DNA of 64,000 nucleotides from Octopus vulgaris (taxonomy: Eukaryota). A model generated the notes under the pieces. The model had not been told where the DNA came from, searched no databases, and worked only from the letters and a program-made list of their open reading frames with translations. Below are positions 951-50,072 of the stretch, piece by piece. Position numbers and translations under genes: made by a program. The stretch is taken from contig OX597830.1 in the NCBI GenBank assembly GCA_951406725.2, positions 71,238,001 to 71,302,000 of the forward strand, read 5' to 3'. Within the stretch, counting starts at the first letter, position 1. The number at the start of each line of letters is the position of its first letter.

Positions 951-1016
951 GTATATGTATACCGTATATTTAATATAAGTGTACATACTGACATATACTA
1001 TTTATAAATATACACA

Positions 1017-1091
<75 letters not shown>

Positions 1092-1334
1092 TGAAACGCA
1101 GGTATGTATATTTTTCTTGGCAGTGACCTCTAAGTTTTGCTGGTCCTGGTTTCATTTTGTAGATTCTACGACTGGCCCAATTTCAAAATTACTTTAAATA
1201 AAATGATTTTAAAAAAACGGTGTATGCTGCATACGTAGACGACCTATAATCTGTCCAATTTCATAATTTATATGCATGTAAACACACCCGCACGCATACG
1301 CATATACATATATACATACATACATATATATATA

Positions 1335-1415
1335 ATAAAATATTAGGGAATAAATCCAAACTTATAGGGAAAAATCAGATTTAGGATTAAATCCAATTTT
1401 ATAGTATAAATATAT
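1335..1415 (-). repeat. Short dispersed repeat in (TA)n, possible PLE-type terminal fragment
   Basis: ATTAGGGAATAAATCCAAACTTA..GGAAAAATCAGAT recurs at 28190-28231 and inverted at 32770-32835. Confidence 0.55.
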
Positions 1416-1431
1416 TATATTATATTATATT

Positions 1432-1477
<46 letters not shown>

Positions 1478-1665
1478 CTTTCATACATACCTACATATAT
1501 ATCAGTATATTTGTGTGTGTGTGTGTGAGTGTGCGCGTGTGAATGTGTAGTAGGTTACGCCTTGTAAATTTTAAAAATAAAACTGTCTGGGTGTCGGTGT
1601 ATGAATGTATTCGTATATGTAATTTCGGTTGTATATATATGTATATATATGTATATGTGTGTGTG

Positions 1666-1762
<97 letters not shown>

Positions 1763-2222
1763 TTACACACACACACATATACATATATACACAGATATGT
1801 GTATGCTTGTGTGTATGTGTGTGTATGCATGCTTTCATCTCCGTGTTTACGTGTTATGTTTATTTTCGCAAAATTAAACCAGAAAAAACAACAACAACAA
1901 AAAAACAAAAGAAGAAAGAGGAAAGAGAAAGGAACCCTTATTGGAGGAAAGATAAGGACATAACTACTACGTACGTAGAACAATTACTAAATGAAGATCA
2001 CATGTTAACTTAGACAAAACACAGACCCCCCCTTCTCCGCCCCCTCTCTTGAATTTCACGTAACCGTTATGAAAATAGCAGCAATCTTTGCCAAGAACTG
2101 GTAAATTACAAGACATACAGGCAATTCTTGAGACTTTCTTTTTGGAATACCTCAAGCCTCGGAGACTGATTTACAAGTCTGTCTTCAGGCGTTTATTTTT
2201 GTTTTCGTTTGTATACATACAT

Positions 2223-2254
<32 letters not shown>

Positions 2255-2496
2255 GTATGTATGTATGTATATAGACATATATATATGTATGTATGTATAT
2301 ATACATATACATATATGTATAAGTATGTATATATATATATATATATATATTTTTGTGTGTATATACATATATATATATGTTTTTAGGTATATATATATAT
2401 ATGTATGTATGCATATATATATATAAACATATGTATATGTATATATATATGTATATGTATATACACACACACACATATATATATATATATGCATTC

Positions 2497-2629
<133 letters not shown>

Positions 2630-2697
2630 CAATAAACAAGCACAAACACACACAAACACACACCGAAAATTGCTCTCCTTATACGCGCGCACCAACA

Positions 2698-2733
<36 letters not shown>

Positions 2734-2884
2734 TATATATATATATGTATATATATATCAGTTTTTTTTTAATGTCTTGCTTCGAAAACTGCATTAGGTA
2801 CGATAAGTTAAATTTTGGTAGTAATGACTTATGTCCCTCTTAGCGTGAGGCATCTATGTGTAATAATGCGGTCTATACAATATA

Positions 2885-3047
<163 letters not shown>

Positions 3048-3731
3048 TTATATATTTATGCCTGTATTCGTATATATCCTCATATAAATACATGTACACG
3101 CATGCATACATATATACATACATATAGTATGTGTGTACCTCTATGGGTTTTCAGTCTATGCTTGACACCGCTTTAAAAAAACCGGTGTCTGTTCAATGTC
3201 CCGCTACCTAGCGGTGCGAGAAGTATTTATCGTTAGAACATAGCACCAGATTTAGCAGCTTCTGAAATGCAGGTTTAATTTTTTCAAGGTGATGTCCCTG
3301 CATGCCTCCAACTATATCTGTGTGTGTGTGAGTGTGAGTGTGCCTGTGTGTGTGTATCTGTGTACATTCGTAACCACACACATTCATATATCCATTTATA
3401 TACACACACACACATATAAATATATGTATATACATACACATATTTGTGTTTATGAGTTTTCTTTAACTTATCTGAAAAAAAAAAAACTATAAATTTTAGT
3501 TCAATGTTGGAGAGCTATTGCATATATATATAAAGGTAGGAACGTAATGTCGAAGTTTTTTACAAAGTTGACTGTGTAGTACCTTTGTTAAATGTCATGT
3601 TGTACAGGTTCGTAAATAGGGTAGACGGAAACTATACTGAAGATCAAAAGGTGGACTGTGCTTGCTATTCAATTAAAAAATTATCGCTTTCTAACACATT
3701 TTGTTATTCTTCATGAGACTTGAGAATTATG

Positions 3732-4171
3732 GGATCTTTTCGGTTTGAACGGCTGTTTTTTCTATCGGTGTCATATGAAATTGTCACCCATAATTATGAC
3801 CCTAGTATAGATCTATTGCATTTCAATCTGTTTTAGGGTTAGGGTTAGTTAGGGTTAGTTTCCTAGGGGTGGGGGGAAGGGTATCTTTTTTTCTTCAGAA
3901 AAGTAAATAAACCTAATCTGTTTCTTAAACGAGGGACATATTTATACGGCACAGAATGTTTTTTTTTTACCTCAATAGACGTCATTGAGTGGTTGAAATT
4001 GCAGAAATTGAAGAAAAATAACAACAAATATCTTACAAACTATAGAATGTTCTCAATAGAGCCAAGAGAAAAAGATGTTTTATAAACACATTCTACCAGT
4101 ATACGAAGTTTAAAAGTGTTTAGTTACGTGGAAATTATTTTAAAAAACTGCCGTTCAAACCGAAAATATCC
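3732..4171. mobile_element. MITE with ~30-bp TIRs, 8-bp TSD and internal TTAGGG repeats (Merlin-like)
   Basis: TIRs GGATCTTTTCGGTTTGAACGGC / GCCGTTCAAACCGAAAATATCC; TSD GAATTATG at 3724-3731 and 4172-4179; GG-initial TIR plus 8-bp TSD fits Merlin. Confidence 0.8.
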
Positions 4172-4693
4172 GAATTATGTTTTAATACTACACGTGCCTG
4201 TGAAATGCCCAACCACTTATACGCTATTTCATCTACTGGAACATCTTAATCCTCATCATCGACGACGGAGATCCAACACCATATATGTACGTGTTTGTGA
4301 TTGTTATTCAACCGTTGAATAAACAACTCCAGTTAAATATTGTAATTCCCCAAATTTCTATCGCGTTCAAGTCATTACTATTCAGATACACTTTTACTCA
4401 AATTTATTCGGATAATAATTAGTATGTTAAGAGTATCGAGTGGAATTGGAGGGTAGTTAACTGCTATTTCTAGTAGTGCCAGCGAATAGGTCACCAGCGA
4501 GAGAACCGATCAATTAAAGAGTATTTCATTAATGTTCCGTTCCAGTTTATATTAATTTGGTATAATTACTTAGATGCATGCATTCATTCGTGACTACATT
4601 GTTAGGATGATATAGAGGCGATGCATCTCTGAATACATATAAACATGTAACATTGTATGTGCATGTACGTGTGCGTACATGCAAATATACATT

Positions 4694-4770
<77 letters not shown>

Positions 4771-4856
4771 ACTTAGAATAACTTAGAAAGGTTTTTGGCC
4801 AGTATTGGCCCAGGCCATGTCTAACTTAATAGCACCACCTGGCGAAGTCTTTCAGT

Positions 4857-7800
4857 TCAGGATTTGGGCACCAAGGCCCATTCGAGCAGAGAGTTATTGT
4901 TTGCGGAGACATATCCGGGTGTGGATGGTTTGTCCGGTACTGTTTGAAGGAATTTGTCCAAAGACTTCTTGAATTTTGTGTGGTCAGTTTCTTTTTTGAC
5001 GTGTCCTGGTGTAATGTTGAAGAGAGCGGGTCCAATTGAGGTGAAATAGTTGTGCCGTATTGTCGTTATGTGATGCGATTTAGATTTTTGTTGTGGACGG
5101 ATGGCACGTGGTCCAAGCCTTGGATGCATTTTGAAGGTGATGCCAACATCATTCGGACAGTGCTGATGGAATATTTTCCACATCATACAGATAATGTAGC
5201 GTTCACGGCGTCGTTGGAGTGAATACAATTTCAGCTTCTCTAGTCTACCCCAGTAGTCAAGGTCTGACATGCCATCTATCTTTTTTGTGATTGACCTTTG
5301 GGGAGCTTCAATTCTCATAATATTTTGTTTTGTGTAGGGAGACCACAGTGGACAGCAGTATTCAAGGTGGGGTCGGGCAAAAGTGGAGAAGAGAAGGATA
5401 ATAGCGTGGGAATCTCTCGACTGGAAGGTTCTGAGAATCCAGGAACACATTCTGCGGGCCATGTCAACTTTGCTGCTTATATGTGTAGCCCAGCTTATGT
5501 TGTTGTCCACTGTTACTCCCAGGTCTCTGATGTTGTTGGATGCCATGAGAATTTCTCCAGAAGGAAGAGAGTATGGGAGTTTCAGAGCGTCCTCCCTTCC
5601 AAAGTGGATCAGTTCGAATTTGTCTTCATTTAGCAACATGTTATTCTTTTCCGCCCATTGGACAACAGCCAGTAGGTCTGACTGAAGGTTTATTCGGTCA
5701 TCCACGCCATTGATGACCTTCTGGAGCTTGGAATCATCAGCGAAGGTTCTGATGTTGCTGTGTTTGATGGTGTCAGTAATATCATTTATGTAGATGATGA
5801 AGAGAAGTGGGCCCAACACAGTGCCTTGTGGGACACCACTGCTGACTTTGGCTGGGCTGGATTTGACTCCTTCGACTACAACATGTTGGGTTCTGTTAGA
5901 GAGGAAGCACTTGATCCATTGCAGCAGCTTTCCAGTGACACCAATATTGGACAGCTTTCTCAGAAGGATCTTATGATCAACCCTGTCAAAGGCCTTGCTG
6001 AAATCAAGGTAGATGACATCAGTGTTGGAACCCTCTCCCAAGGCTCTCAAAATGTCATCAAAATGATGCAGTAGCTGCGTCAGGCAATCTCTCCCATTAC
6101 GGAATCCATGCTGGTTGGGGTTCAGCATATTATGACTCTCAAGGAAGTGAGTCATACGCGATCTCAGCACCCTCTCAAATACCTTGATGATATGAGAGGT
6201 GAGTGAGATTGGACGGTAATTCACGGCAAGCGATTTGTTTCCTTTTTTGAAAACTGGGACAACAGACTGGGATAGAAGGTCTTCTGGTATATATCCAGCA
6301 TCCAATGAGTTCCGCCACAGATTGGCTAGAGGGGGTGCAAGTTGGTTTTGACACATCTTCAAGACACAAGCAGGGAACCTATCGGGACCTACTGCTGAAT
6401 TATGCTTCATTTCCTTTATTGCTGCTAAGACATCAGGAGCGCCAAATGTTATGTCCGATAAAGTGTATTGGGGAGTAACATCACTGATACAGCCCAGATC
6501 AGTCATATCAGGATTGCTGAAAACAGAGCAATATTGTTTCTGCAATATTTCTCCCATGGTTTTGGCATTGTCTTGAAGAATACCATTTTCATCAATCAGA
6601 GGGCCAACAGTAGAACCAGTGACTCTGTGTTTTTTTGCAAATGAAAAGAACACTTTGGGATTGAGTTTGATCTTCTCAATGGCCCAGGCCTCTTCAGCTC
6701 TTCGCTGACTATTGATGATAGACATCATGTTGTTTTGGAGTTTATGTTTTTTAATCTCTAGCGACGAGATGGCAGTCAGGTTGGTGTGTTGCTGTTGACA
6801 GTATTTCAGCATGTTGATCTTTTTGTTGATTCTTTTAATTTTCCTTATGAGAGATTTTCTATTTCTAGGGATTCGACACTTAGATTTGTTTGCAGATCTT
6901 AATGGGGTGTGTCTTGCACATATGTTCGTGATGGTGTCTACAAATGACTGCCAGGACTTTTTGATGTTAGTGGGTGTGTATGTGTGCGTGAAGGACCAAT
7001 CGACTTGTGCAAGATCATTATTGATCGCTTCCCAGTTTGCATTGTGGAAATCCATAGTGTCAAATGGATGAACAGGAGGGATGACATTTGTTTTGCATTT
7101 TGGCCAGTGAAATCTCAGATCACAGAGAACCATGTCATGGTCGGAGAGTAGGGTTTTCTCCACTGCAATATTGTGGATAGTATCAGTGTGATTGCTGAAA
7201 ATTAAGTCTAAGACGTTTTTGTGACATCTCGTTGGTTCGAGTACCAGTTGGGACAAGAAGAAGTCATCCATGAAGTCAAGAAGCGATTCCACTGCCTCCC
7301 TGTCAGGGGTTGAGAGAGAAGAACCTGGCGGCAGACTGTTTGTAGACCAGTCAACCCCGGGAAGGTTGAAATCTCCCATCATTAAAATGTTGTCAGGTTG
7401 ACACTGCTGAATGAAACACTTTATGCTGTTGAGGCATTCCTTGAAGCATGGTAGGGGCGTTTGGGGTGGTCTGTAGAGCCCAACTACTGTTAAGTTGTTG
7501 GTTTGACTGAATACAGCGACTGCTTCGCAGTATCCATTCGAAAATATGTTCATGGCTTCTGTTGAGAATGAATCATGGACATAAATGGCAGTCCCACCCT
7601 TTCTTCTGCCAACACGATCAGCACGAATGGTTTTGAAATTTTTAACTTTCACCTCGGCTTCCAAGTGGAGGTCACTAAGATGGGTTTCAGTGAGGACGAA
7701 GAAAGGGATGTGGTTTGGATGGGCCTCGACCCAGTCCTCCAGGAATCTTATCTTCCATTTTTGTGTATTGGTGGAAGGGCTGATGCCTTGGGCATTAAGC

Positions 7801-7874
7801 AGAAATGTTGAGGCGAGAGTGGATGGTTTTAATTGTTTTGGTGATTTGTTTATTTGATTGCTTTTTAATGGCAT
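4857..7874 (-). CDS. LINE ORF2: AP-like endonuclease plus reverse transcriptase
   Basis: APE motifs LTETHL, GGTAIY, YRPP, GDFN, LDLIF, SDH; RT motifs NYRPISLTS, QHGFR, YLDFSKAFD, GVPQGTVLGPLLF, FADD; C-terminal SLQRRR. Confidence 0.96.
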   Translation of the reverse strand: MPLKSNQINKSPKQLKPSTLASTFLLNAQGISPSTNTQKWKIRFLEDWVEAHPNHIPFFVLTETHLSDLHLEAEVKVKNFKTIRADRVGRRKGGTAIYVHDSFSTEAMNIFSNGYCEAVAVFSQTNNLTVVGLYRPPQTPLPCFKECLNSIKCFIQQCQPDNILMMGDFNLPGVDWSTNSLPPGSSLSTPDREAVESLLDFMDDFFLSQLVLEPTRCHKNVLDLIFSNHTDTIHNIAVEKTLLSDHDMVLCDLRFHWPKCKTNVIPPVHPFDTMDFHNANWEAINNDLAQVDWSFTHTYTPTNIKKSWQSFVDTITNICARHTPLRSANKSKCRIPRNRKSLIRKIKRINKKINMLKYCQQQHTNLTAISSLEIKKHKLQNNMMSIINSQRRAEEAWAIEKIKLNPKVFFSFAKKHRVTGSTVGPLIDENGILQDNAKTMGEILQKQYCSVFSNPDMTDLGCISDVTPQYTLSDITFGAPDVLAAIKEMKHNSAVGPDRFPACVLKMCQNQLAPPLANLWRNSLDAGYIPEDLLSQSVVPVFKKGNKSLAVNYRPISLTSHIIKVFERVLRSRMTHFLESHNMLNPNQHGFRNGRDCLTQLLHHFDDILRALGEGSNTDVIYLDFSKAFDRVDHKILLRKLSNIGVTGKLLQWIKCFLSNRTQHVVVEGVKSSPAKVSSGVPQGTVLGPLLFIIYINDITDTIKHSNIRTFADDSKLQKVINGVDDRINLQSDLLAVVQWAEKNNMLLNEDKFELIHFGREDALKLPYSLPSGEILMASNNIRDLGVTVDNNISWATHISSKVDMARRMCSWILRTFQSRDSHAIILLFSTFARPHLEYCCPLWSPYTKQNIMRIEAPQRSITKKIDGMSDLDYWGRLEKLKLYSLQRRRERYIICMMWKIFHQHCPNDVGITFKMHPRLGPRAIRPQQKSKSHHITTIRHNYFTSIGPALFNITPGHVKKETDHTKFKKSLDKFLQTVPDKPSTPGYVSANNNSLLEWALVPKS

Positions 7875-8350
7875 GTGTAGTGGGGTAATAGTGGTGGATG
7901 GCGGTGGGTGATAGCTCGGATGTTTTTTTCCAGTTCTTTTGCTAGATTCATTATAGCTAAAAAAGAGGAAGAAGAGGTGGTTTCCTGTCTAGGGAACCGC
8001 AGGTGACTGTGGCCGCGGCTATTTTTATGTGAGTGGTTATCTTTAAATGTCCGACGAGTCCCCGGGAGATGGGTAAAGGGGCAATCCCTGTGCAAACACA
8101 ATCTGTCTCGCTGGGAATAGCGGCAGATTTGGGGATTCCTTGTTTGAGATATTGGTGGTTGTGGTGATGTTGTATTATGGTGGTTGCTGTTGTAGTTTGT
8201 GGGGATAGAGCGTTTTGTTCCAGGTAAATGGGTGAATTTGCAGTCTCTATCAGTGCACAGTCTATGGCGAAGAGAATATCGGCAAATGATGGGGTTTCGA
8301 GTGGGTGTGTAGGTGCGTGTGTGTGTGTGAGCTGTGAAGGGTGTAGATGA
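7865..8350 (-). pseudogene. LINE ORF1 C-terminal part with two tandem CCCH zinc fingers (start lost)
   Basis: Extending the 7865..8101 frame upstream gives TRNPIICRYSLRHRLCTDRDCKFTHLPGTKR and TRNPQICRYSQRDRLCLHRDCPFTHLPGTRR (C-x8-C-x4-C-x3-H); its stop overlaps the ORF2 start by 10 nt. Confidence 0.8.
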
Positions 8351-8364
8351 TAGAATATATACAT

Positions 8365-8629
8365 ATATTGATAAAAATGGTAAGACAACAAAAGAATGAA
8401 AGCGAACTCGATATTATGTAAATAGAGGAATTTATCTGTAAATGTAATATGTGACAATTATTCGGTAGCCATGATAAAACTCCGAGTTTCGGATGCCGGG
8501 GTAGAAACCCACGCCGCTATCTCTTCACTTATCCGGCCATCAGAAAAATTGAAGAGATGGCGGCGTGGATTTCCAACCCGGGATCCGAAACTCGGAGTTT
8601 TATCATGGTTACCGAATAACTGTCATATT

Positions 8630-8633
<4 letters not shown>
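8365..8633. repeat. Fold-back element (~76-bp imperfect arms), PLE pLTR-like
   Basis: Arms 8452-8527 and 8550-8625 with 22-nt spacer; each arm carries TGAAGA-hairpin-CGAAACTC. Confidence 0.75.
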
Positions 8634-8687
<54 letters not shown>

Positions 8688-8764
8688 TTATATAACGCTC
8701 AGGAATAGAAAAAGTCTCTTACATTTCTACAGAAAGGGACACAGATATAATAATGATAATAATG

Positions 8765-8833
<69 letters not shown>

Positions 8834-8877
8834 TAATAATAATTTGAGGGAATATTATTCCTATATATATATATACA

Positions 8878-8942
<65 letters not shown>

Positions 8943-9228
8943 ATATATATATATTATATAGATATATGAGTATGTATATATATATATATATACACACATA
9001 CACTTATACCCACACTCGCACGCACACACGCACACATACACACACGCACACACACACACATACACACACACACAAACACACACGCATACACATATATGTA
9101 TATGGCGCGAAATTATGAGGACTTTTTGCCGGTGACTGATGAGGTATAAGCGTCTCCATGGCTTTTGCATGTTTTTCCGGTTTTACGTATTCCTTAGTTA
9201 TCTTTTCTTAAAATGTTTATAGAATCCC

Positions 9229-9290
<62 letters not shown>

Positions 9291-9335
9291 TGGGTGTGTG
9301 TGTGTGTGGGTGTGTGTGTGTGTGAGGGAGTATAT

Positions 9336-9724
9336 ACTCTTTTACTCTTTTACTTGTTTCAGTCATTTGACTGCGTCCATGCTGGAGCACCGCCTTTAGT
9401 CGAGCAAATCCATGCCAGGACTTATTCTTTGTAAGCCTAGTACTTATTCTATCGATTGTCTTTTGCCGAACTGCTAAGTTACTGGGACATAAACACACCC
9501 GCATCGGTTGTCAAGCAATGTTGGGGGGTGGGGGGAAGCACAGAGGTACAAACACATACACACACATACATATATATATACACATATATACGACGGGCTT
9601 CTTTCAGTTTCCGTCTACCAAATCCACTCACAAAGCTTTATAGGAGGCTCAAGGTGCCATGCATTAGGACTGAACCCGGAACCATGTGGTTGGTAAGCAA
9701 GCTACTTACCACACAGACACTCCT
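9336..9724 (-). mobile_element. SINE family A copy
   Basis: Reverse complement of the 541-950 element with an internal deletion. Confidence 0.85.
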
Positions 9725-9747
9725 ATATATATATATATATATATATG

Positions 9748-9975
9748 TTTCTTTATTACCCACAAGGGGCTAAACATAGAGGGGACAAACAAGGACAGAC
9801 AAACGGATTAAGGCGATTACATCGACCCCAGTGCGAAACTGGTACTTAATTTATCGACCCCGAAAGGATGAAAGGCAAAGTCGACCTCGGCGGAATTTGA
9901 ACACAGAAGGTAACGGCAGACGAAATACGGATACTCATTTCGCCCGGCGTGCTAACGTTTCTGCCAGCTTGCCGC

Positions 9976-9976
<1 letters not shown>
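9748..9976 (-). mobile_element. tRNA-derived SINE family B (Nin/Deu-domain-like)
   Basis: Minus strand GGCGGCAAGCTGGCAGAAACGTTAGC...GTTCAAATTCC then GCCTTTCATCCTTTCGGGGTCGATAAATTAAGTACCAG; copies at 15258, 28970, 59600. Confidence 0.85.
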
Positions 9977-10025
<49 letters not shown>

Positions 10026-10328
10026 CGCGTATGTATACTTGTGTGTTGAATGTAGACGTTACACTGTATTATTCACGCATGCAGGTGAAGATAGTAATCC
10101 ATAGCTACTTCATAATGTCTGTGTCCACCTAGGCGACGGTTATAAGAAAAGCGTGAACGTGACAATACCTTCCATCAACTCAATAGTACTATGTCAAAAA
10201 AAGGTTAATTACACGGCGACTGGGAACGATGATTACATAACAAAGAAGTGTCAGTATAAGTTGTATAGGAAAATATCGATTTTGAAATGTTATATGATAA
10301 CCATGCACACAATTATACACAAACACCT

Positions 10329-10375
<47 letters not shown>

Positions 10376-10961
10376 GACGTATAAGTTCTATGTGTGTGTG
10401 TGATTACGATACCTTATACACCAGTGACAGCTGCCAAACAGACACGGACCTAGTGTTGGGTTTTACGCTACAAGTACATACACATACAGTCACACAGACA
10501 ATCGCACATATATACACACCTTAAAAAAAACATATCTAAATATAATATTTTCTCTTGCAAAGATTACTCAAAAGCAGATCATTTTTTCAGAAAAAAAAAC
10601 ACACACACACACACATACACATACTTATGTATATACACACATCTATGTGTGTATATACATAAGTATTGAGTATATATTCACTATTTATCTACGCTTATAT
10701 ACACGCACAAATATATTCAGGTACTCGCACATGTATGCATGTATGTATGTATGTATGTATGTATGTATGTATGTATGTATGTATGTATATATAATTCAGA
10801 GAAAAACCACTATAAAACAATTCAATAAAGAAATATGTTATTCACACCATATTTAAAGCATATTCTATAAAAAAAACTTATTTTAGATCAATAAAGTACA
10901 ATAAATGAATTTTTACCAGTAAGTTTTGGAATTATATTCCCTACTGTTATTATTATTATTG

Positions 10962-10998
<37 letters not shown>

Positions 10999-11624
10999 GC
11001 ACACAAACACACACACACACACACATATATGTATATATATATGAAGAGAGAGAGAGAGACAGATGGATAGACAGATGCAGATATACATACGTGGATTGCA
11101 TGGCTACGTGTGCGTGTTTGTGCTTGTATATGAGGGTGTGTTGTAGGCTTGTTTAGGTGCCTGTGGCTGTTTTCTGTGTCTGTGTAATCACTCATCCTCA
11201 TCATTTGCTGTTACTGAAAACAGAGAAGAAAAAAAAGGAAAAAAAAAGAAAAACAACAGAAAGTAAAAACACTTCATTATTTATGAAGACGAGGCAATTG
11301 GTTTTTCAGAGTCGAGATAGCAAATAGAAACTCTATCATGATACGTAGTTGAACAAAATAGACGGACACTGACTTGCAGCAAGAGCGCTGAAGTCAGCTG
11401 TGGAGCCTCTATGTAGATCAGTGTGAGGTATCATCCAGCGATTGGAGGACGGACATTTCAATGTATGTATACCAATTCGGCTATTCTTTTCTTATCTATA
11501 TCTATATACATATCAATTGATATCATGCATACATACATACATGCATACATACATACATACATACATACATACATACATACTTACATACATACATACATAC
11601 GTACATACATATATCTATATGTAT

Positions 11625-11669
<45 letters not shown>

Positions 11670-11696
11670 GTGTATATATATATATACATATATACA

Positions 11697-11730
<34 letters not shown>

Positions 11731-11755
11731 AGTATATATATGTATATATATATAA

Positions 11756-11805
<50 letters not shown>

Positions 11806-12283
11806 GTGTATATATATATATATATGTATATAAGTACAATAAGTACATATGCATGTGCTGATGTATGTATATCAATAAAATTATATACATGTGTGTGTAT
11901 GTGTGTGAATGTATATATATATATATATATGTATGTATATATGTATATATATATATATATATTAGTGCATATACATACACACATACATATATATATATAT
12001 ATATGAGTGTATATACATATATATATATTCATATACATATATATATAAATACATACACATTCACACAGATATATATATATAGTAACATTATTTGTGCATT
12101 GTATAGGCAGTAGTTTGAGGTGCTCAGATAAAAGCTCGACACACAAGATATAAAAATGTTAAGGAAAATTTGAATAGGTTCCACAATTCATATAAACATA
12201 TATTACCCCATGGATCGACGTATATAAGTTTTTAAATATACAAAAGTAACAATCATGTATGTATATATATATATATATATATC

Positions 12284-12568
12284 TTAGAAGAAATGAGGTA
12301 CTCAGAAAATCGGATGGTTTATATTTACAGATATTTATTTGTATATTACATTTTTATATATATATATCATATCACTTAGATCATTAGCGCTTTCTCCCAT
12401 TCTAGTGGGGTTTTCAAATCTAAAACATTTTGATTTGAAAACCCCACTAGAATGGGAGAAAGCGCTAATGATCTAAGTGATATGATATATATATATAAAA
12501 ATGTAATATAGAAATAAATATCTGTAAATATAAACCATCCGATTTTCTGAGTACCTCATTTCTTCTAA
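12284..12568. repeat. Near-perfect 137-bp inverted repeat, 11-nt spacer
   Basis: 12284-12420 versus 12432-12568 with one mismatch seen; flanked by (TA)n. Confidence 0.9.
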
Positions 12569-12640
12569 TATATAATACCTGTACAACATCTCAAAACCTT
12601 CCAATATATATATATATATATATATAAATATATATATACG

Positions 12641-12830
12641 CATACCACGCGACAGGTGAAAATGAAAATCCGCGAAATATTCAGTACTGTACTGTATATT
12701 TAAAAAATTACTTTTATAATTTGTATATATTTATTCTATTATAAATGCAAAATAACACAAGGGATGAATCGACGTAAGCTTGAATACTAAATCGCGATAG
12801 GTGAACCGCGATTTGACAAGGGATTACTTT
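12641..12830 (+). mobile_element. Partial Tigger/pogo-like MITE
   Basis: Similar to 13532-13760; ends GAACCGCGAT..AGGGATTACT. Confidence 0.55.
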
Positions 12831-12834
12831 ATAT

Positions 12835-12889
<55 letters not shown>

Positions 12890-12963
12890 AATATATATAT
12901 ATATGCATATATATATATACATACAGACAGGCACGTACACAAAGACGCACACACATTTACACG

Positions 12964-13011
<48 letters not shown>

Positions 13012-13103
13012 CTTTCTCTTAAATGGCAGGAGTTAAGGATTCACTCCAAGTACCGAGTGTGCCAATGCACAAATCTCTCTGTAACAACTCTGTAAATATT
13101 ATT

Positions 13104-13177
<74 letters not shown>

Positions 13178-13217
13178 ATGAAATCATTTATAGAATATCT
13201 GTGAATATCTGTCTATG

Positions 13218-13275
<58 letters not shown>

Positions 13276-13491
13276 CCTATCTATCTATCTATCTATCTAT
13301 CTATGTATCTATCTATCTATCTATCTATTTGTCTCTCTATCTAGCTATTTATCTATCTACCTATCTATCTATCTACCTATCTATCTATCTATCTGTCGAT
13401 ATATATGTGTATATATATATACATGTGTATATATGTGTACATATTGTATGTATGTGTGTATTTATATATATATATATATGTGAATATGTGA

Positions 13492-13526
<35 letters not shown>

Positions 13527-13531
13527 AACAT

Positions 13532-13760
13532 GCATTATCCCTCGGTGTTTTTGGAACGTAACACCAGCGATAGGTGAAAATCTGCGAAGTAGAACGTACA
13601 CTGTACTGCATATTGCGTTTTATTATTTTTATAATTTGTAAATATTTATTTTATTGTAAATGCAAAACAACCCCACGAGGGAATCAACGTAAGCTTAAAT
13701 AATAAACCGCGATAGATGAACCGCGTTAAGTGAACCACTATATGGTGAGGTACTATTGCA
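13532..13760 (+). mobile_element. Decayed Tigger/pogo-like MITE
   Basis: Starts ATCCCTCG; shares GCGATAGGTGAA, AAATGCAAAA and ACGTAAGCTT blocks with 12641-12830. Confidence 0.55.
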
Positions 13761-14186
13761 TTCTCTTTCGTGCATGTGCTCTTTGTCGGTGTGTTTATCT
13801 ATGTGTGTCTATAAATACTTGATTTTTCTGAGTCTACGACACTGAATTATTTGAGTTATTTCCCTTACCTCATTTAGAAGAAAACAAAAAAAAAAAAACA
13901 TGAAGGAGAGATTAGGAATATTTTTCTTTCCATATTATTCGATATATGTAGTGTAAGCTGATATCGGAGTGAACTAAACTTACGACGACCTAGTGTTTGT
14001 GTGTGTAGGCTGTTCAGTGATGCAAATAGACAGGACACCAGTAACGAGACAGTGATCCCTTCGAAAATTTAAGGGCCTTTCAGAACGACAGTTTAACTGC
14101 AACTTCTGTCACGTTTTTATTATTATGACCCTAGACATTCCAAACTAGTTTAGAAAAACAAATTTTAGAGCCTTGTCATTATAGAC

Positions 14187-14187
<1 letters not shown>

Positions 14188-14281
<94 letters not shown>
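14188..14281. repeat. (TATC)n microsatellite
   Basis: Pure tetranucleotide run; similar runs near 13215, 41145 and 61193. Confidence 0.95.
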
Positions 14282-14282
<1 letters not shown>

Positions 14283-14890
14283 GTCTGTCTGCCTGCCTAT
14301 CTGTCTGAATATCTTCCTGCCTGCCTGTCTGTCTGCCTACCTATCTGCCTGTCTCTCTCTCCGTTCCTCTCTGTTTGCCTGCCTGTCTGTCTTTCTCTCT
14401 GTCTGTCTATATATCTATCTATCTGACTATCTATTTGTGTGTGTGTATGTGTGTGTGTGTATACATATACATATATGATTACATATGTGTGTGTGTACAT
14501 ATATAAATATGTGTGTATATGTATGTATATGTGTGGAGGATATGAAACTTTCATATTAGGATCCAACATTCGTTTCTGCATCACATACCAGCTTTAAGTT
14601 GCTATTTATATATTCATATAACCATTATATGGTTCTTTATAATTACGATATATTAAATTATTTTACAGCAATGCCAAATAATATTACGTGTACGATTGTG
14701 TGTGCATCTGATAATATTTCCTCTAACTATTGTATCATTTCAATAGAAATAATGATAATGATTCATATTTGTGAGAATGTGAGGAAGATAACATTCGAAC
14801 GATCCTTCACTATACTTTGAATAAATAAATCACTCGATTCATTAAACTGGACCATTAACGCACCCAAAATGCATATCTGAAACAACCGGA

Positions 14891-15560
14891 ACTTACTTTA
14901 CTTGACTTACTTGAGGCAACATTCACCTTGGGTGGGTTGAGTCGGCTTCTTCTACCACCCTCGAAGCATCTCGAAGAAGTTTCGAAGCAGTGGAAGAAGT
15001 TTCGTGGGAATATGAATTTCACAAGCGCTCCCCAACAATCCCGCTTGTAGAGACATCCTGTTTGCCGCAGATTGTCCGCGGACGCAGGGACAGAATGACC
15101 AAGGAGCCGCCTGTTGCCGAAACAGACACTCCGAGGATTTTCACCAGAGCTCCGTCTGTCGGGTTGTGGACCTAATAAAACTCGGTGTCAGACCAATCCG
15201 CCTTGGGTGGCCCTACCAGGAACCGAAGTTCCCGACGGCATAGCTCTAACACTACCTATTTCTTTACTACCCTCAAGGGGCTAAACACAGAGAGGACAAA
15301 CAAGGACAGACAAACGGTTTAAGTCGATTATATCGACCCCAGTGCGTAACTGGTACTTATTTAATCGACCCCGAAAGGATGAAAGGCAAAGTCGACCTCG
15401 GCGGAATTTGAACTCAGAACGTAGCTGCAGACGAAATACTGCTAAGCATTTCGCCCGGCCTGCTAACGTTTCTGACAGCTCGCCGCCTTACCTGACTCTA
15501 CCTGTTGCCAGCGTCCCCACTACGGTGAGGAGGGGATGGACTTTGGGGACGCAAGCAACC
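14891..15560 (-). mobile_element. Short non-autonomous RTE-derived element interrupted by a SINE
   Basis: Minus strand AGAGCTATGCCGTCGGGAACTTCGGTTCCTGGTAGGGCCACCCAAGGC resembles RTE 5' UTRs; (AAGT)n-like 3' tail; no ORF. Confidence 0.6.
15258..15487 (-). mobile_element. SINE family B copy nested in the RTE-derived element
   Basis: Matches 9748-9976; TACCT on both sides is a possible TSD. Confidence 0.85.
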
Positions 15561-16129
15561 GGAAGTCTATATATAATCTAAAACTAAACGTAGAAAGTCT
15601 ATTACTTATGTCTATTTGTGATAAATCACTGTAAAAGCACAACACCTTAACTCAGTAATGTAACCATGGATTTTTACTGTTGATGGACTTCAAATTTGGT
15701 TTTTTGATATCAAACCCGAGACCTTTTGTTAGCCTTGTGTATTTGTTTCTAGGCAAAAAAAGAAAATGACTCTCCCCAGACACAGCAGAATATGCTTCAA
15801 CACACGAACTCATAAAAAGAATCTTGCAAACCAAATCCCAAAACGAAACATTTCTAAAGATAGCTAAAGAAGTATTTTGCGTGTGTATGTGTGTATGTGT
15901 GTCTGTGTGTGTGTATAAGAGTACGTGTGTGTGTGTGTATAAGTGTACGTGTGTGTGTGTGTGTGCGTGCGTGTGTATGTATAAATTCATTTCTCAGTCG
16001 TTTTCGGTGTTCATGCACCAAAAGATACACATACTCACTCAAAAGCACACACGCACACACACATACACATACATACACATTTACATACACACTCGCACAC
16101 ACACACACACTTACACACACATACAAGTA

Positions 16130-16270
16130 TAAGGTTGTCCCAAAAGTTCGTAGAAAGTCTTGGAAAATAATGGTCTTTAATTTGAGGAATAATTTTTGTT
16201 GTTTTTGTTAGTATTTGGCGAGTAAAAATTCAATTTTCGCAAGTGTTTACGAACTTTTGGGACAACCTAA
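16130..16270. mobile_element. Mariner-like MITE
   Basis: TIRs AGGTTGTCCCAAAAGTTCGTA / TACGAACTTTTGGGACAACCT with TA on both sides. Confidence 0.85.
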
Positions 16271-16724
16271 TATATGTAAGCTTGAATCAAGATTATTTTC
16301 GTTGCTTTTTCAAGCCACAAAACTACACCTCAGTGTTCTATGGACGATCTGGGGAAAACGCAATTTCTCTCTCAGCTTCATTTTCATATCCTATGATTAA
16401 GGCTATTTGCCTTCTTTGCTGCCTTTACGGGCTCTTCTTCGTTCACGAACTCGATTGCTGCCGTTGTTTTCCCCAGATCATGGTGTTTCTAAAGCCTTTC
16501 ATGTTCCAGGTTGTGAGCGAATGCTGCGTGCAACTTGATATAAAATAAACAGGAATATTACGTCTGGAACGCCTTTGATTGTAGATGAACACGACGAGTG
16601 GGGATTAAATGTTAAAAATCAACACCAACAAGTCATTTAACTCCCCCAAAAAACGGTATAAAACACACCGTTGTAGATTTCAGTGGTAGTGTCATTAGGA
16701 ATGGTGTTGGTGGTAGCAGCAGCA

Positions 16725-16878
16725 GTAGTAGTAGTAATAGTAGTGGTGGTGGTGGTGGTGGTGGTGGTGGTGGTGGTAGTAGTGTTGTTGTTGGTGGTGG
16801 TGGTGGTGGCGGTAATAGTAGGTGGTGGTGGTGGTGGTGGTGGTAGTGGTGGTGGTGGTAGTGGTGGTGGTAGTGGTG

Positions 16879-16914
<36 letters not shown>

Positions 16915-16926
16915 GTTGTTGTTGTT
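16725..16926. repeat. Compound (GGT)n/(AGT)n microsatellite
   Basis: Source of the poly-V/G/S/H/P ORFs. Confidence 0.9.
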
Positions 16927-17221
16927 CACATCAGTTCTGATCGAGAGCAGATTTCTGGTCAAAGGAATTATCATCATGACTACCCACCACCTCTCTTGAA
17001 ACACGAGCCAGTTTTTTCCTAATTTCATCGTTATAAAACGGGACATGTAATTTGAAGATGGCGCAGTTACTATTTTCAGCAAATCGCAAGACCATATAGA
17101 GCAGGCCTCACCAACACGAATTACACTGCGGGTCACTTTAATCACAGAAAGCTTTTGTTTTTTTTTTGAGGGCCGCTTGTGTACTGACAGAATTGAAAGC
17201 ACTTTGCTTTCTCATACCATT

Positions 17222-17554
17222 GGATGGATGGAAGCTCGTGAAATTAACGTGTAAGTGGCTGAGCATTCCACAGACACGTGTACCCTTAACGTAGTTCTCG
17301 GGGATATTCAGCATGACACAGAGAGTGACAAGGCCGGCCCTTTGAAATACAGGTACAACAGAAACAGGAAGTAAGAGTGAAAGAAAGTTGTGGTGAAAGA
17401 GTACAGCAGGGATCACCACCATCGCTGCCGGAGCCTCATGGAGCTTTAGGTATTTTCGCTCAATAAACACTCACAACGCCCGGTCTGGGAATCGAAACCG
17501 CGATCCTACGACCGCGAGTCCGCTACCCTAACCACTGGGCCATTGCGCCTCCAC
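17222..17554 (-). mobile_element. tRNA-derived SINE family C (tRNA-Arg-like head)
   Basis: Head GGCGCAATGGCCCAGTGGTTAGGG...GGTTTCGATTCCC; 12-bp TSD TCTCATACCATT at 17210-17221 and 17555-17566; CCAT-repeat tail. Confidence 0.9.
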
Positions 17555-18610
17555 TCTCATACCATTATTACAATAATGAATGAATAATCGTTGATTTAAC
17601 ATGAAATATTATCATTGCAAAAACACTAGTATCTTTCTTTTTTCCATTTCCTTACAATCTTTTTGCTAAAATTTTTGCTAAATTTTAAAAAATGTTTGCT
17701 AAAATTTTTGCTAAAATTTTTGCTAAAATCTTTGTTTAAATAAATCCATTTCAAGAAAGTATCAAGTGTGCCGCAAGATAAAGGTCTACAGGCCACATGC
17801 GGTCCGCGGGCCTCAGGCTGGCCAGCCTTGACATAGAGGCTCATTCATTGTCTGCAATCCGTCTTTGATTTAATAAGACATTCTATTCACACACATATTA
17901 CGGGTTCCCTGCAACCGACCAAGGTTTTGTTTACTTGACATGCTAAACTCGTATCATTATATGATTATATGACTTGTCAAAGGAGATGAACTCAGTTGGA
18001 CTCAATAGAGATAATTAATTATTCAGCATATTGTTGATTAAGAAAACCATTTAGTAATTGATTTTAATTATCTTAGATTTATGAGGCAATTATCTATTGA
18101 TTAATAATAATACAACTGATTGATATGCTGATTATAACCAAACTGAACATCAACCGTTCCAATCAGCCCTGTCTCAGAGGACCTGCGACGGTATGGTGTA
18201 CTGGCTGTGAATTAACACACACATATAAGCATATATACATACAGTCGTACCTGCACACACATGCACACACACAAACACACACACACACACATACATACAC
18301 ACACACACACAAACGCACAGGCGCATTATCATATATATCAACTGAAATATACATGCATATATATACATGCATATATGTGTGTGTATGTATATATATATAA
18401 ACACAAATTCATTCATACATACATATATATGTATTGGAGTGTGTGTGCGTGTATGTGTGTGTGTGCGTATGTGTGTGTGTGTATAGGCTGTTGAGTCGTA
18501 CTAATTCTTGGAATAAAGATGGTATGGTTATCAATGGAACAATTTTGGTGTCAAAATTGCTGAATTAATATAAATATGTGTTTCCTTACATATGAATATA
18601 TATATACCTG

Positions 18611-19330
18611 CTGGGTGCGGTGAGTGTACTATCGCCATTTTATATTTTTAAATTTTTAATTTCTCGCATGCGCATTGTTTGTTTTGAATTTTGTCGACTA
18701 CACAGTATAGTAGGGTCAGTTGAGCACCGTCTGTGAGAAAAACGGCACCAATTCACGAGTAATGGCGACGTTTTGCCTCCATTCATCTTCCTACACGGAC
18801 ACAAACTAAACACGGAGGCCTACATAGAATACCTGGAGGAGGTTGTGCTGCCCTGAGTCAAGAGGGTGGCTGGTGGAAGACCCTATGTCTGACAACAGGA
18901 CTCTGTACCATGCCACACAAGCAGGAGAACCCAGTCATGGCTATCAGATAATTTCTGCGACCACATCACCCCTAACATCTGGCCACCTAACTCCCCAGAC
19001 TGCAACTCCTTTGATTATTATGTGTGGGGCGCAGTTGAGCGAGAGACCACCAAGATTCCTTGTGACACCAAAGATGAACTGAAGGCAAGGATTATGGCAA
19101 CATTCACCAACTTAGACAAGGAGACTGTCCAGAAGAGTTACAGGAGAGTTCCAAGTTGTCTGGAGATCGTGGTTGAAGCTAATGGCGATTTTATTGAATA
19201 AATTTACTCTTTAATATTTCAAGATATTTTTTATATAATTTTGGTAAATATATCTGTTAAAATGAGATGTCAGTGTTATTTTCATTTCTGCCTGCCTAAT
19301 TTAGACGACAGTTACTTCACCGCAGTCAGT
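18611..19330 (+). mobile_element. Internally deleted Tc1/mariner DD37D (maT-like) transposon
   Basis: QQDSVPCH...WPPNSPDCNSFDYYVWG with 37 residues between the last two catalytic Asp; in-frame stops; imperfect TIRs TGCGGTGA / TCACCGCA. Confidence 0.85.
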
Positions 19331-19349
19331 ATATATATATAGATTTGAT

Positions 19350-21149: not shown

Positions 21150-22150
21150 TATAGTCCATTTAGATTTGAATTTTATATCTTTCTTGTTATGGACCTCTGG
21201 AGTGCTTCCACTTTCATAATGAGTTGCTTTGTATGAGGAGTACACAGTGGGCAACAGTACTCAAGGTATGGTCGGGCAAAAGTAGAGTAGTGAAGGATGA
21301 TGGTGTGGGCATCTCTAGACCAGAAATTTCTCAGAATCCAGGAACTCATCTTGCGGGCCAAGTCAACCTTTCTGTTTACGTGTGAACTCCAGCATAGATT
21401 GTTATCAACAATTACTCCAAGATGTCTGGTGTTGTTGGATGACAGTAGGGAATCGCCCGAGAGCATATGGTAATTTCAGAGTATCCTCTTTTGCAAAGTG
21501 GATCAAATCAGGCTTATCTTAATTTAGAAGTATATTGTTTTTTCCGCCCATTGTTCAACAGCAAACAGATCCAACTGAAGGCATGTTCGGTCTCCCATAC
21601 TGTTTATGGCTTTCTGGAGTTTGCAATCATCTGCAAAGATTTTCAATGAAGTCTGTTTGATGACGTCTACTATGTCATCGATGTAGATAATGGAGAGGAG
21701 TGGGCCCAACTCAGTACCTTTTGGGACTCCACTACCGACTTTGGTTGAACTGGATCGTATTCCCTCACACACAACATCTTGGGTTTTATTCGTCCAGAAA
21801 CACTTTATCCACTACATCAGCTTTCCACGGACTCCAATGTTGGACAGTTTCCCCTCTGTCAAATGCCTTGTGAAGTCAAGGTATATGACGTCAGTGTTGG
21901 AGCCCTCTCCCAAAGATTTTAAGGTGTCACCAAAATGGTGTAGAAGCTGCGACAGGCAGTCCCTGCCATCGCGGAAACCACGATGGTTGGGTTTCAGTAG
22001 ATTGTTGTCTTCGAGGAAGTGAGTTATTCGCGATTTCACCACCCTTTCAAATACTTTAATGCTATGAGAGGTGAGTGAAATCGGACGGTAGTTCATTGCA
22101 AGAAATTTACTTCCCTTTTTGAAGACTGGGACAACAGACTGGGAAAGAAA
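21150..22150 (-). pseudogene. Decayed RT fragment related to the LINE at 4857-7874
   Basis: ORF pieces NYRPISLTSH, DVIYLDF, GVPKGTELGPLL, IFADD, FARPYLEYCCPL are colinear with ORF2. Confidence 0.9.
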
Positions 22151-22221
22151 ATGATATGTTTCTCCAGAGCTCAGCAAAAAGGGTGCAATTTAATGCCGAC
22201 ACATCTTCACACACACACACA

Positions 22222-22433
22222 CGTCTTTCAGAATGTGACCTCGTGTGTACCGTTGGCGATTTTTTTCCTCAGTCTTCCCTTCTCTGGATCTTTCCTTTTC
22301 CTATGTTTCCGACGAAGAGCTCCGCTCGAAACGTTAAACCCTCCTTCTTTCCTTCTTTCGTGAGCGTCCAATAATACTATACCTGTTCCACATCCTCGCG
22401 TTGTTGTGTTTTTTTGTGTTTTCTTGTTTCGAT

Positions 22434-22438
<5 letters not shown>
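22222..22438 (+). mobile_element. ~215-bp hammerhead-bearing non-autonomous element, family H1
   Basis: Colinear with 37921-38130 and 48803-49018; motif at 22305-22339 GTTT-CCGACGA-A-GAGC-TCC-GCTC-GAAA-CGTT-AAAC. Confidence 0.75.
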
Positions 22439-22500
<62 letters not shown>

Positions 22501-22540
22501 ATATATATATATATAAATATATAAATATATATATGAATAA

Positions 22541-22585
<45 letters not shown>

Positions 22586-22616
22586 ATATACATACATACA
22601 TACATACATACATACA

Positions 22617-22650
<34 letters not shown>

Positions 22651-22722
22651 CATACATATATATATATATATAGAGAGAAAACTTACTTGGAAGAAGACGT
22701 GTGGCGTTCGATCATACATACA

Positions 22723-22796
<74 letters not shown>

Positions 22797-41655: not shown

Positions 41656-42150
41656 TAATGTTCGTCCTTCGGGTTCGAAGATGACCATTGACATCATTTG
41701 GTGGAATTGCTGCTATGAGACCGGATGTGGCTGATGAGGCCTATCCGGGCAAGAAAGCCCCTCCCACAGGTGGGACAGAAGTGGGTAGGGGCTGTGTTAT
41801 TGGTGCAGGTGGCTCTGGCTTTCTGCATCTGGCGTTTCTGTTCTGCTGACTGAATCCGTCTCTCCTCGGCTGTCTTTGCTCCTGTGGTGATTGCGCTGCG
41901 CCAGGATGAGCGGTCGGCAGCAAGTGTCTCCCAAGTCTCTGTGCCGATGGAGAAGTCCTTGAGAGAGACTTTGAGACTGTCCTTGAAGCGCTTCTTCTGC
42001 CCTCCGACTTTGCGTTTGCCCTGGCTGAGTTCACCGTAGAAGAGCTGTTTTGGGATGCGAGTGTCGGACACGCGGGAGACGTGGCCTGCCCATCTCAGCT
42101 GGGCCTTGCGCATGATCGTGATGGTGCTAGGGAGATCTGCCTGCTTCAGA
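41656..42150 (-). mobile_element. 5'-truncated RTE (BovB-like) LINE with an unbroken C-terminal frame
   Basis: AQLRWAGHVSR..RIPKQLFYGEL..GGQKKRFKDSLK..CPTCGRGF..IGLISHIRSH*; short 3' UTR GGTCATCTTCG..CGAAGGACGAAC. Confidence 0.92.
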
Positions 42151-43994
42151 ACTTATATAGATATATATAATTGTGTTCAAACATTCAGCATATTTCCTAT
42201 GCATGGTGCAACACAGATGCAGTCAACTACCAGGCCGCAGATTACAGTCTAGTCCAGAGTCGTGACCGTGGAAAATTTGGTATCGAGCTGCCTGAAAATA
42301 TAAAGTTTATTAAGCCAGTTAAATGTGTTAAATGTATGTTGTAATTGGTATCGAAGAGACTTTCGGACTCTTGTACACATAGGGCACAACGTGCCTCTCT
42401 GTCTATGTCCGTCTGTCTCTCTCTGTCTCTACCACCGTCTCACCCTACCTCTTTCTTCTCTCCCTGTATATTTCTCTGTCTCTTTTTATATAATTCTCTC
42501 TGTCTCTCTGTCTCTCTGTCTCTCTGTCTCCCTCTGTCTCTGTCTGTCTGTCTCTCTCTCTGTCTCTCTCTCTCTCTTTCTGTCTGTATCCGTCGCTCTC
42601 TCACGCACACATTCACACGGTATTCTGCCTTCATTTGCTCGCCAAGATTTTTTAACGTCTCCTTTTTCTTTGATGGATTGTCTCTGTTTCTATGTCCGTT
42701 CCTCTCATTCTTCCTTTATTCCTCTCTTTCTTTCATTCTCTCTTTCCCCTTCATTTTATTGGTCTTCCATACCTTCGTTAAATATTTTTTTCCATTCTGC
42801 TTTCTTCACTCCCTGCTTGTCCCTTTGTGAAGCTCTCCCTTTCTATCCCCACCACCTCACATTATCATTTCTTCCCTCTTCCTCTTTGTTTTCTGATGAT
42901 ACCGATGCCTGTTTCTATGACAACACCGTTCAGTGTTACAGGCATTTAAATTCCTATTAATGTCTGTTGCTAAGGTAATAACACCTTCCTGGGTAAAGGG
43001 ATATGTGAGTTGCTACAGCAACATGCATAGCTGCATCAAATCTAGTGCATGTCACGTTACTGTGAAAATTTGGGCCTTAGATCTTAGCAATCACTGGCGA
43101 CCGGTTTGTATACTTATTAAAACTCTTCATTAACGTCAGTAACTTGCATTCTCACGACTAATTCTAAGACTTATGAAGCGACCCAATGGAAAATTCTCTT
43201 AGGTACACACTCGGCTTGCTGTCAAATCTCGCTCTCAATATTACATATGCAAAATACACGTCACATAAAATGTAGGCCTATAGTGATGGATAGTGAAAAA
43301 CAACCGAAAAAACCTTGCTTTATGAATCAGTTAAAACAAAATTGATCTAAGGTTAGTTGAAAGCAATACTATAGAATTACGACTAAATATGGACAATACA
43401 ATAATTTTGATGAAAAGTTACTGATAATATTCAGAGAGAAAACCGTCAAGCATACAAACGGATAGTTTTTATACTAATTTAAATACTTAATTTAGTGTAA
43501 GTGATGTCGGGTTAGAATCCTGGTTTAGAAAGAGGGCAGATGATAGTCTCATCTACATCAAAGGCTTATATACATACAAGTAGAAACGCTATGGGATTCT
43601 GGGTAAGCATAAATCTGAAACTGATGGAAAACCTTTAGAGATTCTACACAATTTTCCCTTAGACAATAAAGGAATGACGCTTAAACCGTAATGTTACTAA
43701 TGAGTAATATATTGTAACAAACCAGTAGAATGAGTGCTCAGCACTAGAGAAGTGGGTAAACAAGTATTTTTCAAGAGAATTTTTGTAAATTCTCATATTC
43801 TTGGTAGCAAAGGTCAGCATTTTATAAACCAGAATTCAAAATACAAACGATTCACTGGTGAATAAAGAATTCTAGTCGAACAAATAATGATCGCTAGCAT
43901 CAGGAAATCTCAGGTATCACAGAAGTAATAAATATTCTCTTTAAACGTATACACTCACACACACACACATAAATTTATATATATATATATATAT

Positions 43995-50021: not shown

Positions 50022-50071
<50 letters not shown>

Positions 50072-50072
<1 letters not shown>

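Follow-up and report, generated by a model that had tools for sequence, protein, structure and literature searches.

Dispersed hammerhead-containing units in octopus DNA as probable solo pLTRs of a Penelope-like element with a common 5' start

The 64-kb stretch of octopus DNA considered here (the window) contains three similar units with a candidate hammerhead ribozyme, and the question is what these units are and how they were dispersed. The units, all on the plus strand, are situated at 22223-22438, 37923-38130 and 48804-49017 and have a length of ~215 bases each. The initial annotation described them as three dispersed ~215-bp units with shared termini, and alignment bears this out: copy 2 is 93.5% identical to copy 1 (E 4e-91), and copy 3 is 86.1% identical (E 1e-64). 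Two copies indeed open with TTTCA.AATGTGACC, and all three close with GATTAACT. Copy 1 starts 3 bases upstream of the start common to the family (see below), ends with GATTAAC-T in a (TA)n tract, and adjoins a (TA)n/(TACA)n microsatellite at 22439-22788 (plus), the likely insertion target. Copy 2 belongs to the U4 / G.U sublineage; its first base lies ~12 bases past the common start, and (TA)n follows it. Copy 3, from the main G-C / C4 sublineage, begins at the common start and lies between (TACA)n tracts. No Penelope coding remnant was observed in the window by tblastn or blastn, and thus all three copies are solos. Self-comparison of the window revealed no head-to-tail repeat of the unit; the copies are single. 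Neither Rfam at the gathering score nor ARAGORN, used for tRNAs, had any match in the window.

Other repeats were observed in the same window. A LINE at 4857-7988 (minus) has a 1,043-codon open frame with endonuclease and reverse transcriptase domains (Pfam E 6e-14 and 2e-30), and its degraded relative at 21176-22189, 75% identical, ends ~70 bases before copy 1. A mariner-type transposase remnant is present at 25741-26208 (plus; Transposase_1, E 4e-12), and a LINE-like 3' end fragment without a Pfam match at 41694-42152 (minus). Long near-perfect palindromes of 170-300 bases were found by self-comparison at 8411-8666, 12278-12574 and 50062-50231.

The candidate hammerheads are 35-mers starting at 22305, 37993 and 48884. 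Each consists of a 4-bp stem I, the core, an extra A, a stem II of 4 bp whose loop has 3 bases, GAAA, and ACGU. This layout supports the assignment to the minimal type I hammerheads of the dimer-dependent kind, and the ACGT palindrome that was said to stand in place of stem III is present in all three copies. The stem I strings were also read correctly, GTTT/AAAC at 22305, ATTT/AAAT at 37993 and GTTT/AAGC at 48884. The proposed stem II, GAGC-TCC-GCTC, is found at 22305 and 48884, but copy 2 has TAGC-TCC-GCTC. The hammerhead of copy 1 (22305-22339, plus) has the substitution U4C, the extra A after A9, the 4-bp stem II and the ACGU palindrome; cleavage is predicted after 22335. In copy 2 (37993-38027, plus) the core is the canonical CUGACGA and pair 2.4/1.4 is A-U. 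However, the conserved G-C pair 10.1-11.1 is broken (T at 38005) in this very copy, which had been called compensatory. The hammerhead of copy 3 (48884-48918, plus) has the U4C core and a U.G wobble at pair 2.3/1.3. Thus the cores at 22305 and 48884 read CCGACGA and not CUGANGA, a point absent from the initial annotation.

The family of these units, H1, is large. A degenerate 35-letter ribozyme pattern has 7,267 exact matches in the genome (2.8 Gb, 227 contigs), and its reversed control has none, so that the number is far above chance. Since this pattern matches 31 of 90 copies chosen via a separate 3' motif, we estimate about 21,000 copies genome-wide. The estimate is likely low, because the 90-copy sample favours well-kept copies.

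For mapping the ends of the unit, the 90 leading copies among the 6,864 matches of the 3' motif were used, which come entirely from the initial 50 Mb of a single contig; the motif excludes the sublineage of two coding loci described below (L110 and L113). The copies were aligned to a natural copy carrying 220 bases of upstream sequence, and 5' positions were numbered from the third base of TC[A/T]TTCAAAATG. The 3' ends of 88 of the 90 copies fall at -2..+9 of GGATTAAC, mostly in (TA)n. The 5' ends of 69 copies fall within 22 bases, at -3..+18, with 3 upstream and 18 downstream, and TA/TG microhomology with the flanks blurs these ends by several bases. The start is common to three sublineages (18/23, 17/23 and 24/28). 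No copy among the 90 starts at the cleavage site (+105..+115), and none continues into the element body. The mobile unit proposed initially is thus well defined: its 3' end is fixed, its 5' end is clustered, and neither shows the random spread of eroded pLTRs. A microsatellite flanks the 3' side in 50 of 69 solos and the 5' side in 42 of 69. The bases following the 3' end are TTTA in 26/90 copies and TATA in 35/90. TCATTC resembles the initiator consensus, but about half of the clean starts read TCTTTC and no downstream promoter element is evident; these motifs were given no weight.

A shared upstream extension was observed in 5 of the best 30 matches to the unit. A search with this extension retrieved loci of the form unit-body-unit, with bodies of varying length. 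The longer bodies reach a coding region with the motifs DKG, LPKIHK, LDIKSLY, G.AMG and Y.DD, a CSRSRCNxC linker, and LIY-CxxC-YVG. The whole unit is present at both sides of the coding region in L110 (4.4 kb apart) and L113 (6.0 kb apart), and a direct repeat flanks a single coding region in L061 and L062. Since elsewhere in the genome the unit flanks coding sequence for reverse transcriptase, linker and GIY-YIG nuclease, it is to be considered a pLTR. By the motif definitions, and as far as sequence comparison can assign it, the parent of this pLTR is a Penelope-like element that is endonuclease-positive and of Neptune or Nematis type. Thus "defined unit" and "pLTR" are both true and are not alternatives; the pLTR identity had been missed.

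Several observations refine this assignment. The reverse transcriptase motifs including DKG are present in L040, L041/L062, L048 and L094. The linker between the reverse transcriptase and the nuclease reads CSRSRCNTC at residue 817 of L094 and CSRSRCNIC in L062. The GIY-YIG domain of L094 has the CCHH residues (LIYCIKCNLCGMLYVG, EH, RHF). In the H1-linked L062 the motifs of reverse transcriptase, linker and nuclease are spread across frameshifts, and its GIY-YIG domain retains CxxC and the first H, followed by a frameshift. There are 58 homologues, with identity up to 61%; many have RVT_1 and some have GIY-YIG. The coding frames themselves match Pfam families below the curated cut-offs (RVT_1 with E 1e-3 to 2e-2, and 9e-5 in one case; GIY-YIG with E 0.015-0.017). 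Six H1-linked fragments matched no Pfam family, and a PDB sequence search with the 949-aa protein of a sister family gave nothing to E 1. On a weak tree from a short alignment, the solos do not separate from nine pLTRs linked to coding sequence or body, which are scattered among them. The linked pLTRs differ by 2-8% from the nearest solo, the mean between solos being 8.4%. Pairs of units on opposite strands, 0.1-1.5 kb apart, were observed in L002, L005, L008, L014, L022 and L038. Inverted pLTR arrangements are known for Penelope-like elements and resemble these pairs.

The sister family, B, is young (L094-L098, L100 and L101, e.g. C3:63452500-63459500). It has 918 exact matches to a 42-mer, ~1% divergence and insertions in (TA)n. 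Its open frames have ~1,009 codons and share 80.6% of their DNA bases with the coding region linked to H1, and the 949-aa protein contains, in this order, DKG, LPKIHK, LDVKSLY, GVAMG, YIDD, CSRSRCNTC, LIY-CxxC-YVG, H and H. In the hammerhead of family B, position 4 is C, the cleavage site reads GUC, and stem I contains a U.U mismatch. The starts of family B are scattered: among the first 30 of 918 matches, 21 reach more than 100 bases upstream, 3 start at the spot matching the H1 start and 6 are short. None of the seven coding-linked repeats of family B starts at the H1-equivalent spot. The difference in clustering between H1 (69/90) and family B (3/30) has P 8e-11. Four copies of family B start 5-13 bases past the cleavage site; this edge is imposed by the search motif and was not accepted as evidence.

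The hammerhead layout was scored in the sampled H1 copies. An extra base after A9 is present in 87/87 sampled copies, G10.1-C11.1 in 79/85, and the C and G of the palindromic 15.2-16.2 pair are kept in 85 and 79 sampled copies. At position 4, 55 of 87 sampled copies have C and 31 have U. If C4 is allowed, the core and all pairs are intact in 40/87 copies; with U4, in 15/87. U4C is a natural variant described as less active in vitro, which yet supports a viroid in vivo (PMC3088659). Two-dimensional folding of the 35-mer monomer does not favour the hammerhead fold, and the whole unit folds no better than its shuffles (z +1.4), with no stable rod. Single minimal hammerheads are reported to show no cleavage, and dimers to show low cleavage (PMC4209133). 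Departures from the column majority in the 90-copy sample occur at similar rates inside (140/3,013) and outside (529/9,738) the ribozyme, catalytic positions included, and thus the inserted copies decay close to neutrally. On the other hand, the ribozymes of H1 and family B are identical in 33 of 35 bases, whereas the coding regions are 80.6% identical (P 0.02); of the two ribozyme differences, one is the U.U mismatch in stem I of family B. This is modest evidence, from sequence comparison, suggesting that the parents that replicated depended to some extent on the ribozyme. In four contig-level runs of uncertain type mapped on the family B element, read depth is high over the ribozyme shared by H1 and B, a signal inseparable from copy number and therefore given no weight.

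The covariation of stem I, which had been proposed as evidence of structure, does not hold. In a ranking by G-test with background correction, applied to the 90 copies, which had been chosen by the 3' motif and not by the ribozyme, the eight stem pairs rank from 201 to 19,339 among 19,829 pairs of columns. Rank 19,339 belongs to the claimed pair 2.4/1.4, and the top-ranked pairs are unpaired sublineage markers. Genome-wide, pair 2.4/1.4 is G-C in 5,990 matches, G.U in 1,086, A.C in 97 and A-U in 94. The A-U combination is enriched (odds ratio 5.3), which counts in favour of the initial annotation. However, a 4-base deletion distant from the ribozyme is present in 18/31 A-U copies, 5/29 G.U copies and 0/26 G-C copies; the set analysed for the deletion and the tree comprised 30 of the 94 A-U loci, 29 G.U and 24 G-C loci, the three copies of the window and one A.C locus. 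On the tree made without the ribozyme columns many A-U copies cluster together, and the A-U copy of the window falls outside this cluster, among G.U neighbours. Thus the A-U excess is mostly shared ancestry, coming from one sublineage, and the change at this pair within the family (G-C, G.U, A-U) amounts to about two lineage changes. Starting from G.U, either transition yields a Watson-Crick pair. With family B as outgroup the G-C/C4 state tentatively falls close to the root, across a long branch. The second stem I pair, 2.3/1.3, was also considered. In the 90-copy sample it is C-G in 2 of 85 copies, which initially suggested compensation. This was rejected, as genome-wide G at 1.3 occurs in 1/58 copies with C at 2.3, versus a background of 6 among the first 100 ribozyme-pattern matches listed. 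More generally, common descent can mimic covariation when only a few copies of a repeat are compared, and such cases should be treated with caution.

The window contains a second hammerhead family at 48230-48460 and 55454-55620 (minus), with cores at 48313 and 55537. It has the same core, the extra A and the ACGU palindrome, with stems ACAC/GUGU and GGCUG/CAGCC. It is preceded, at 48385-48460, by (AAT)n and by a head that resembles a tRNA, and a first look at the genome gave 2,944 candidates. As judged from its sequence, the combination of the same layout with different stems supports the fold, not the covariation within H1. A loose scan also reported isolated hammerhead-like cores at 41731 and 46246 (plus) and 28743 (minus).

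Taken together, the three units of the window probably are solo pLTRs of a Neptune-type Penelope-like element, written by the reverse transcriptase into (TA)n, with run-off at the likely 5' end of the RNA. The GIY-YIG nuclease would nick a TA repeat, the nicked end would pair with the TATATA following the unit in the RNA, and the reverse transcriptase, primed on the TA target, would copy 215 bases to the RNA 5' end and run off. The common start would then represent a transcription start inside the pLTR, as suggested by the DNA ends. Such internal starts are reported for Penelope and Chlamys-3, and TA bias or microsatellite targeting has been tied to the cysteine linker (PMC8557442). In full-length insertions the enzyme would jump to the other pLTR and continue, the solos being products in which this jump is absent. 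For the hammerhead, activity is predicted only in a dimer formed by the two pLTRs of the full-length RNA; in solos it would be inactive and a passenger, their spread not being ribozyme-driven. Since no start was found at the cleavage site, the end data do not show ribozyme cutting. Observations that count against the run-off model include the scatter of family B starts (21/30 more than 100 bases upstream), the few body-followed H1 repeats that begin at -3..+18 (4/15 loci, from 18 rows with 3 duplicates removed), and the 35/90 ends with TATA.

These starts also bear on the possibility that the solos arose by recombination between pLTRs, as solo LTRs do, or by 5' truncation with ATGTG microhomology as a hot spot. 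Recombination or deletion has been proposed for the solo pLTRs of Adineta (PMC3846280), many 5' junctions of H1 read TATATGTGACC or GTGTGTGACC, and 6/15 body-linked repeats start at -10..+17. However, recombination would reproduce the start spread of the full-length copies and not the clustering of 69/90, and random truncation would scatter the starts as in family B. Of the 25 two-part copies scored, 13 have a downstream unit that begins at -3..+18. Seven of these 25 junctions fall at -1..+1, where the unit joins non-repetitive body without TA/TG microhomology. Another 10/25 start at -53..-10, a class favoured by the query, and 5/30 have no unit in range. We consider an origin by recombination or truncation improbable.

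Closest to the initial annotation is a small RNA circle that the ribozyme site both opens and closes and that is copied to DNA, so that the units would be monomers of a hammerhead retrozyme. With 215 bases the unit has a length seen among animal retrozyme monomers, pLTR-related retrozymes are described as occurring also in dispersed monomers, and the near-identity of the H1 and B ribozymes (33/35) agrees with this scheme. However, copying of a circle implies permutation at the cleavage site, where 0/90 copies begin, and the ribozyme is intact in the middle of the unit. It is also minimal and not canonical, the window has no head-to-tail repeat of the unit, and the unit forms no stable rod. Such an origin is highly improbable.

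The template of the run-off reaction can be of two kinds. The element body opens with TTTATATA, matching the TA target, and thus the 5' repeat of the full-length RNA could be what is copied; the transcript of a solo that extends into the adjoining TA flank could equally be the template. The data do not separate the full-length and solo templates, as TTTA (26/90) and TATA (35/90) both follow the 3' ends and linked pLTRs mix with solos on the tree. The second kind would make H1 a SINE-like self-propagating unit: the solo promoter yields a transcript into the (TA)n flank, which is recopied in trans by a Penelope-like protein. The chemistry is identical to that of the preferred explanation and only the template differs. 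Consistent with such propagation, none of the 90 copies enters the body and ~21,000 copies are estimated, solos contain sublineages, and the start cluster is far stronger than in the autonomous family B (P 8e-11). Solo dominance is likewise far greater in H1 than in family B, and the 35/90 ends with TATA resemble genomic flank. Non-autonomous elements derived from pLTRs are known (PMC8557442; bioRxiv 10.64898/2026.07.22.740005). However, the coding-linked pLTRs are mixed with the solos and do not form an outgroup to a solo-only clade, as far as the weak tree of a short alignment goes, and we regard propagation of solos from solos as rather unlikely. One variant, a tRNA-derived SINE, was rejected: there is no tRNA or Rfam match, and a run of seven T stops RNA polymerase III, so that the seven-T run at ~+35 would stop it and the unit is not a tRNA-type SINE.

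Returning to run-off on the full-length RNA, a bolder version can be offered tentatively, as a possibility. Copying of Penelope-like elements would begin at the 5' repeat, and the cap-ended strong-stop cDNA would have to jump to the other repeat, as in retroviruses. The ~16,000 fixed-start solos would then represent failed jumps and the two-part copies misplaced jumps, and the hammerhead would trim the RNA 3' end in the second repeat, leaving a 110-base overlap. If true, this would provide a testable model for the origin of pLTRs and partial tandems.

The motifs resemble the minimal hammerheads described in pLTRs (PMC4209133) in the 4-bp stem I, the extra base between 9 and 10.1, G10.1-C11.1, the palindromic 15.2-16.2, the lack of loop 3 and the pLTR location, and likewise in occurring as thousands of mostly single dispersed copies, with few in full elements. 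They differ in stem II, which is 4 bp in H1 versus 7-8 bp there, and in C at position 4 in the main H1 sublineage and family B. Single motifs are called there "probably related to truncated PLEs", and a fixed 5' start is not reported in the accessible part of that paper. The octopus repeat annotation (PMC13282606) lists Penelope-like elements, some recently active, and its main text, in the accessible part, does not mention ribozymes. Neither the hammerheads of Penelope-like elements in cephalopods nor solo pLTRs with a fixed start were the subject of any paper found, in a literature that excluded Repbase, Dfam, supplements and most subscription papers; the supplements of PMC4209133 and PMC13282606 may list the H1 family.

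Like the Neptune and Nematis elements (PMC8557442, PMC3846280), the parent has a single ORF, reverse transcriptase with DKG, a CX2-5CxxC linker and, at the C-terminus, a GIY-YIG domain with CCHH, as well as direct pLTRs, partial tandems and microsatellite targets. The length of the H1 pLTR is near 200 bases, as in Adineta (PMC3846280). Unlike these elements, it has a long CA-rich 3' untranslated region, and the solo form dominates in H1. The non-LTR retrozymes of animals (PMC7229834, bioRxiv 10.64898/2026.07.22.740005) are similar in being short and non-coding with a type I hammerhead, and in pLTR kinship, dependence on a Penelope-like protein and dispersed monomers. However, retrozymes are described as tandem units cut to monomers and circles (PMC7229834), whereas H1 units occur singly, carry the ribozyme in their middle and do not end where it would cleave. 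Classification as a non-LTR retrozyme was rejected on this basis: the copies are single in the window, and at two-unit loci the units are separated by the element body.

The ribozyme itself is ordinary, as a 2014 study already described minimal hammerheads of Penelope-like elements, dispersed in thousands of copies (PMC4209133). The point of interest is the fixed start. The occurrence of copies with one start beside a young ORF-bearing sister family with scattered starts makes both the RNA start and the order of copying testable.
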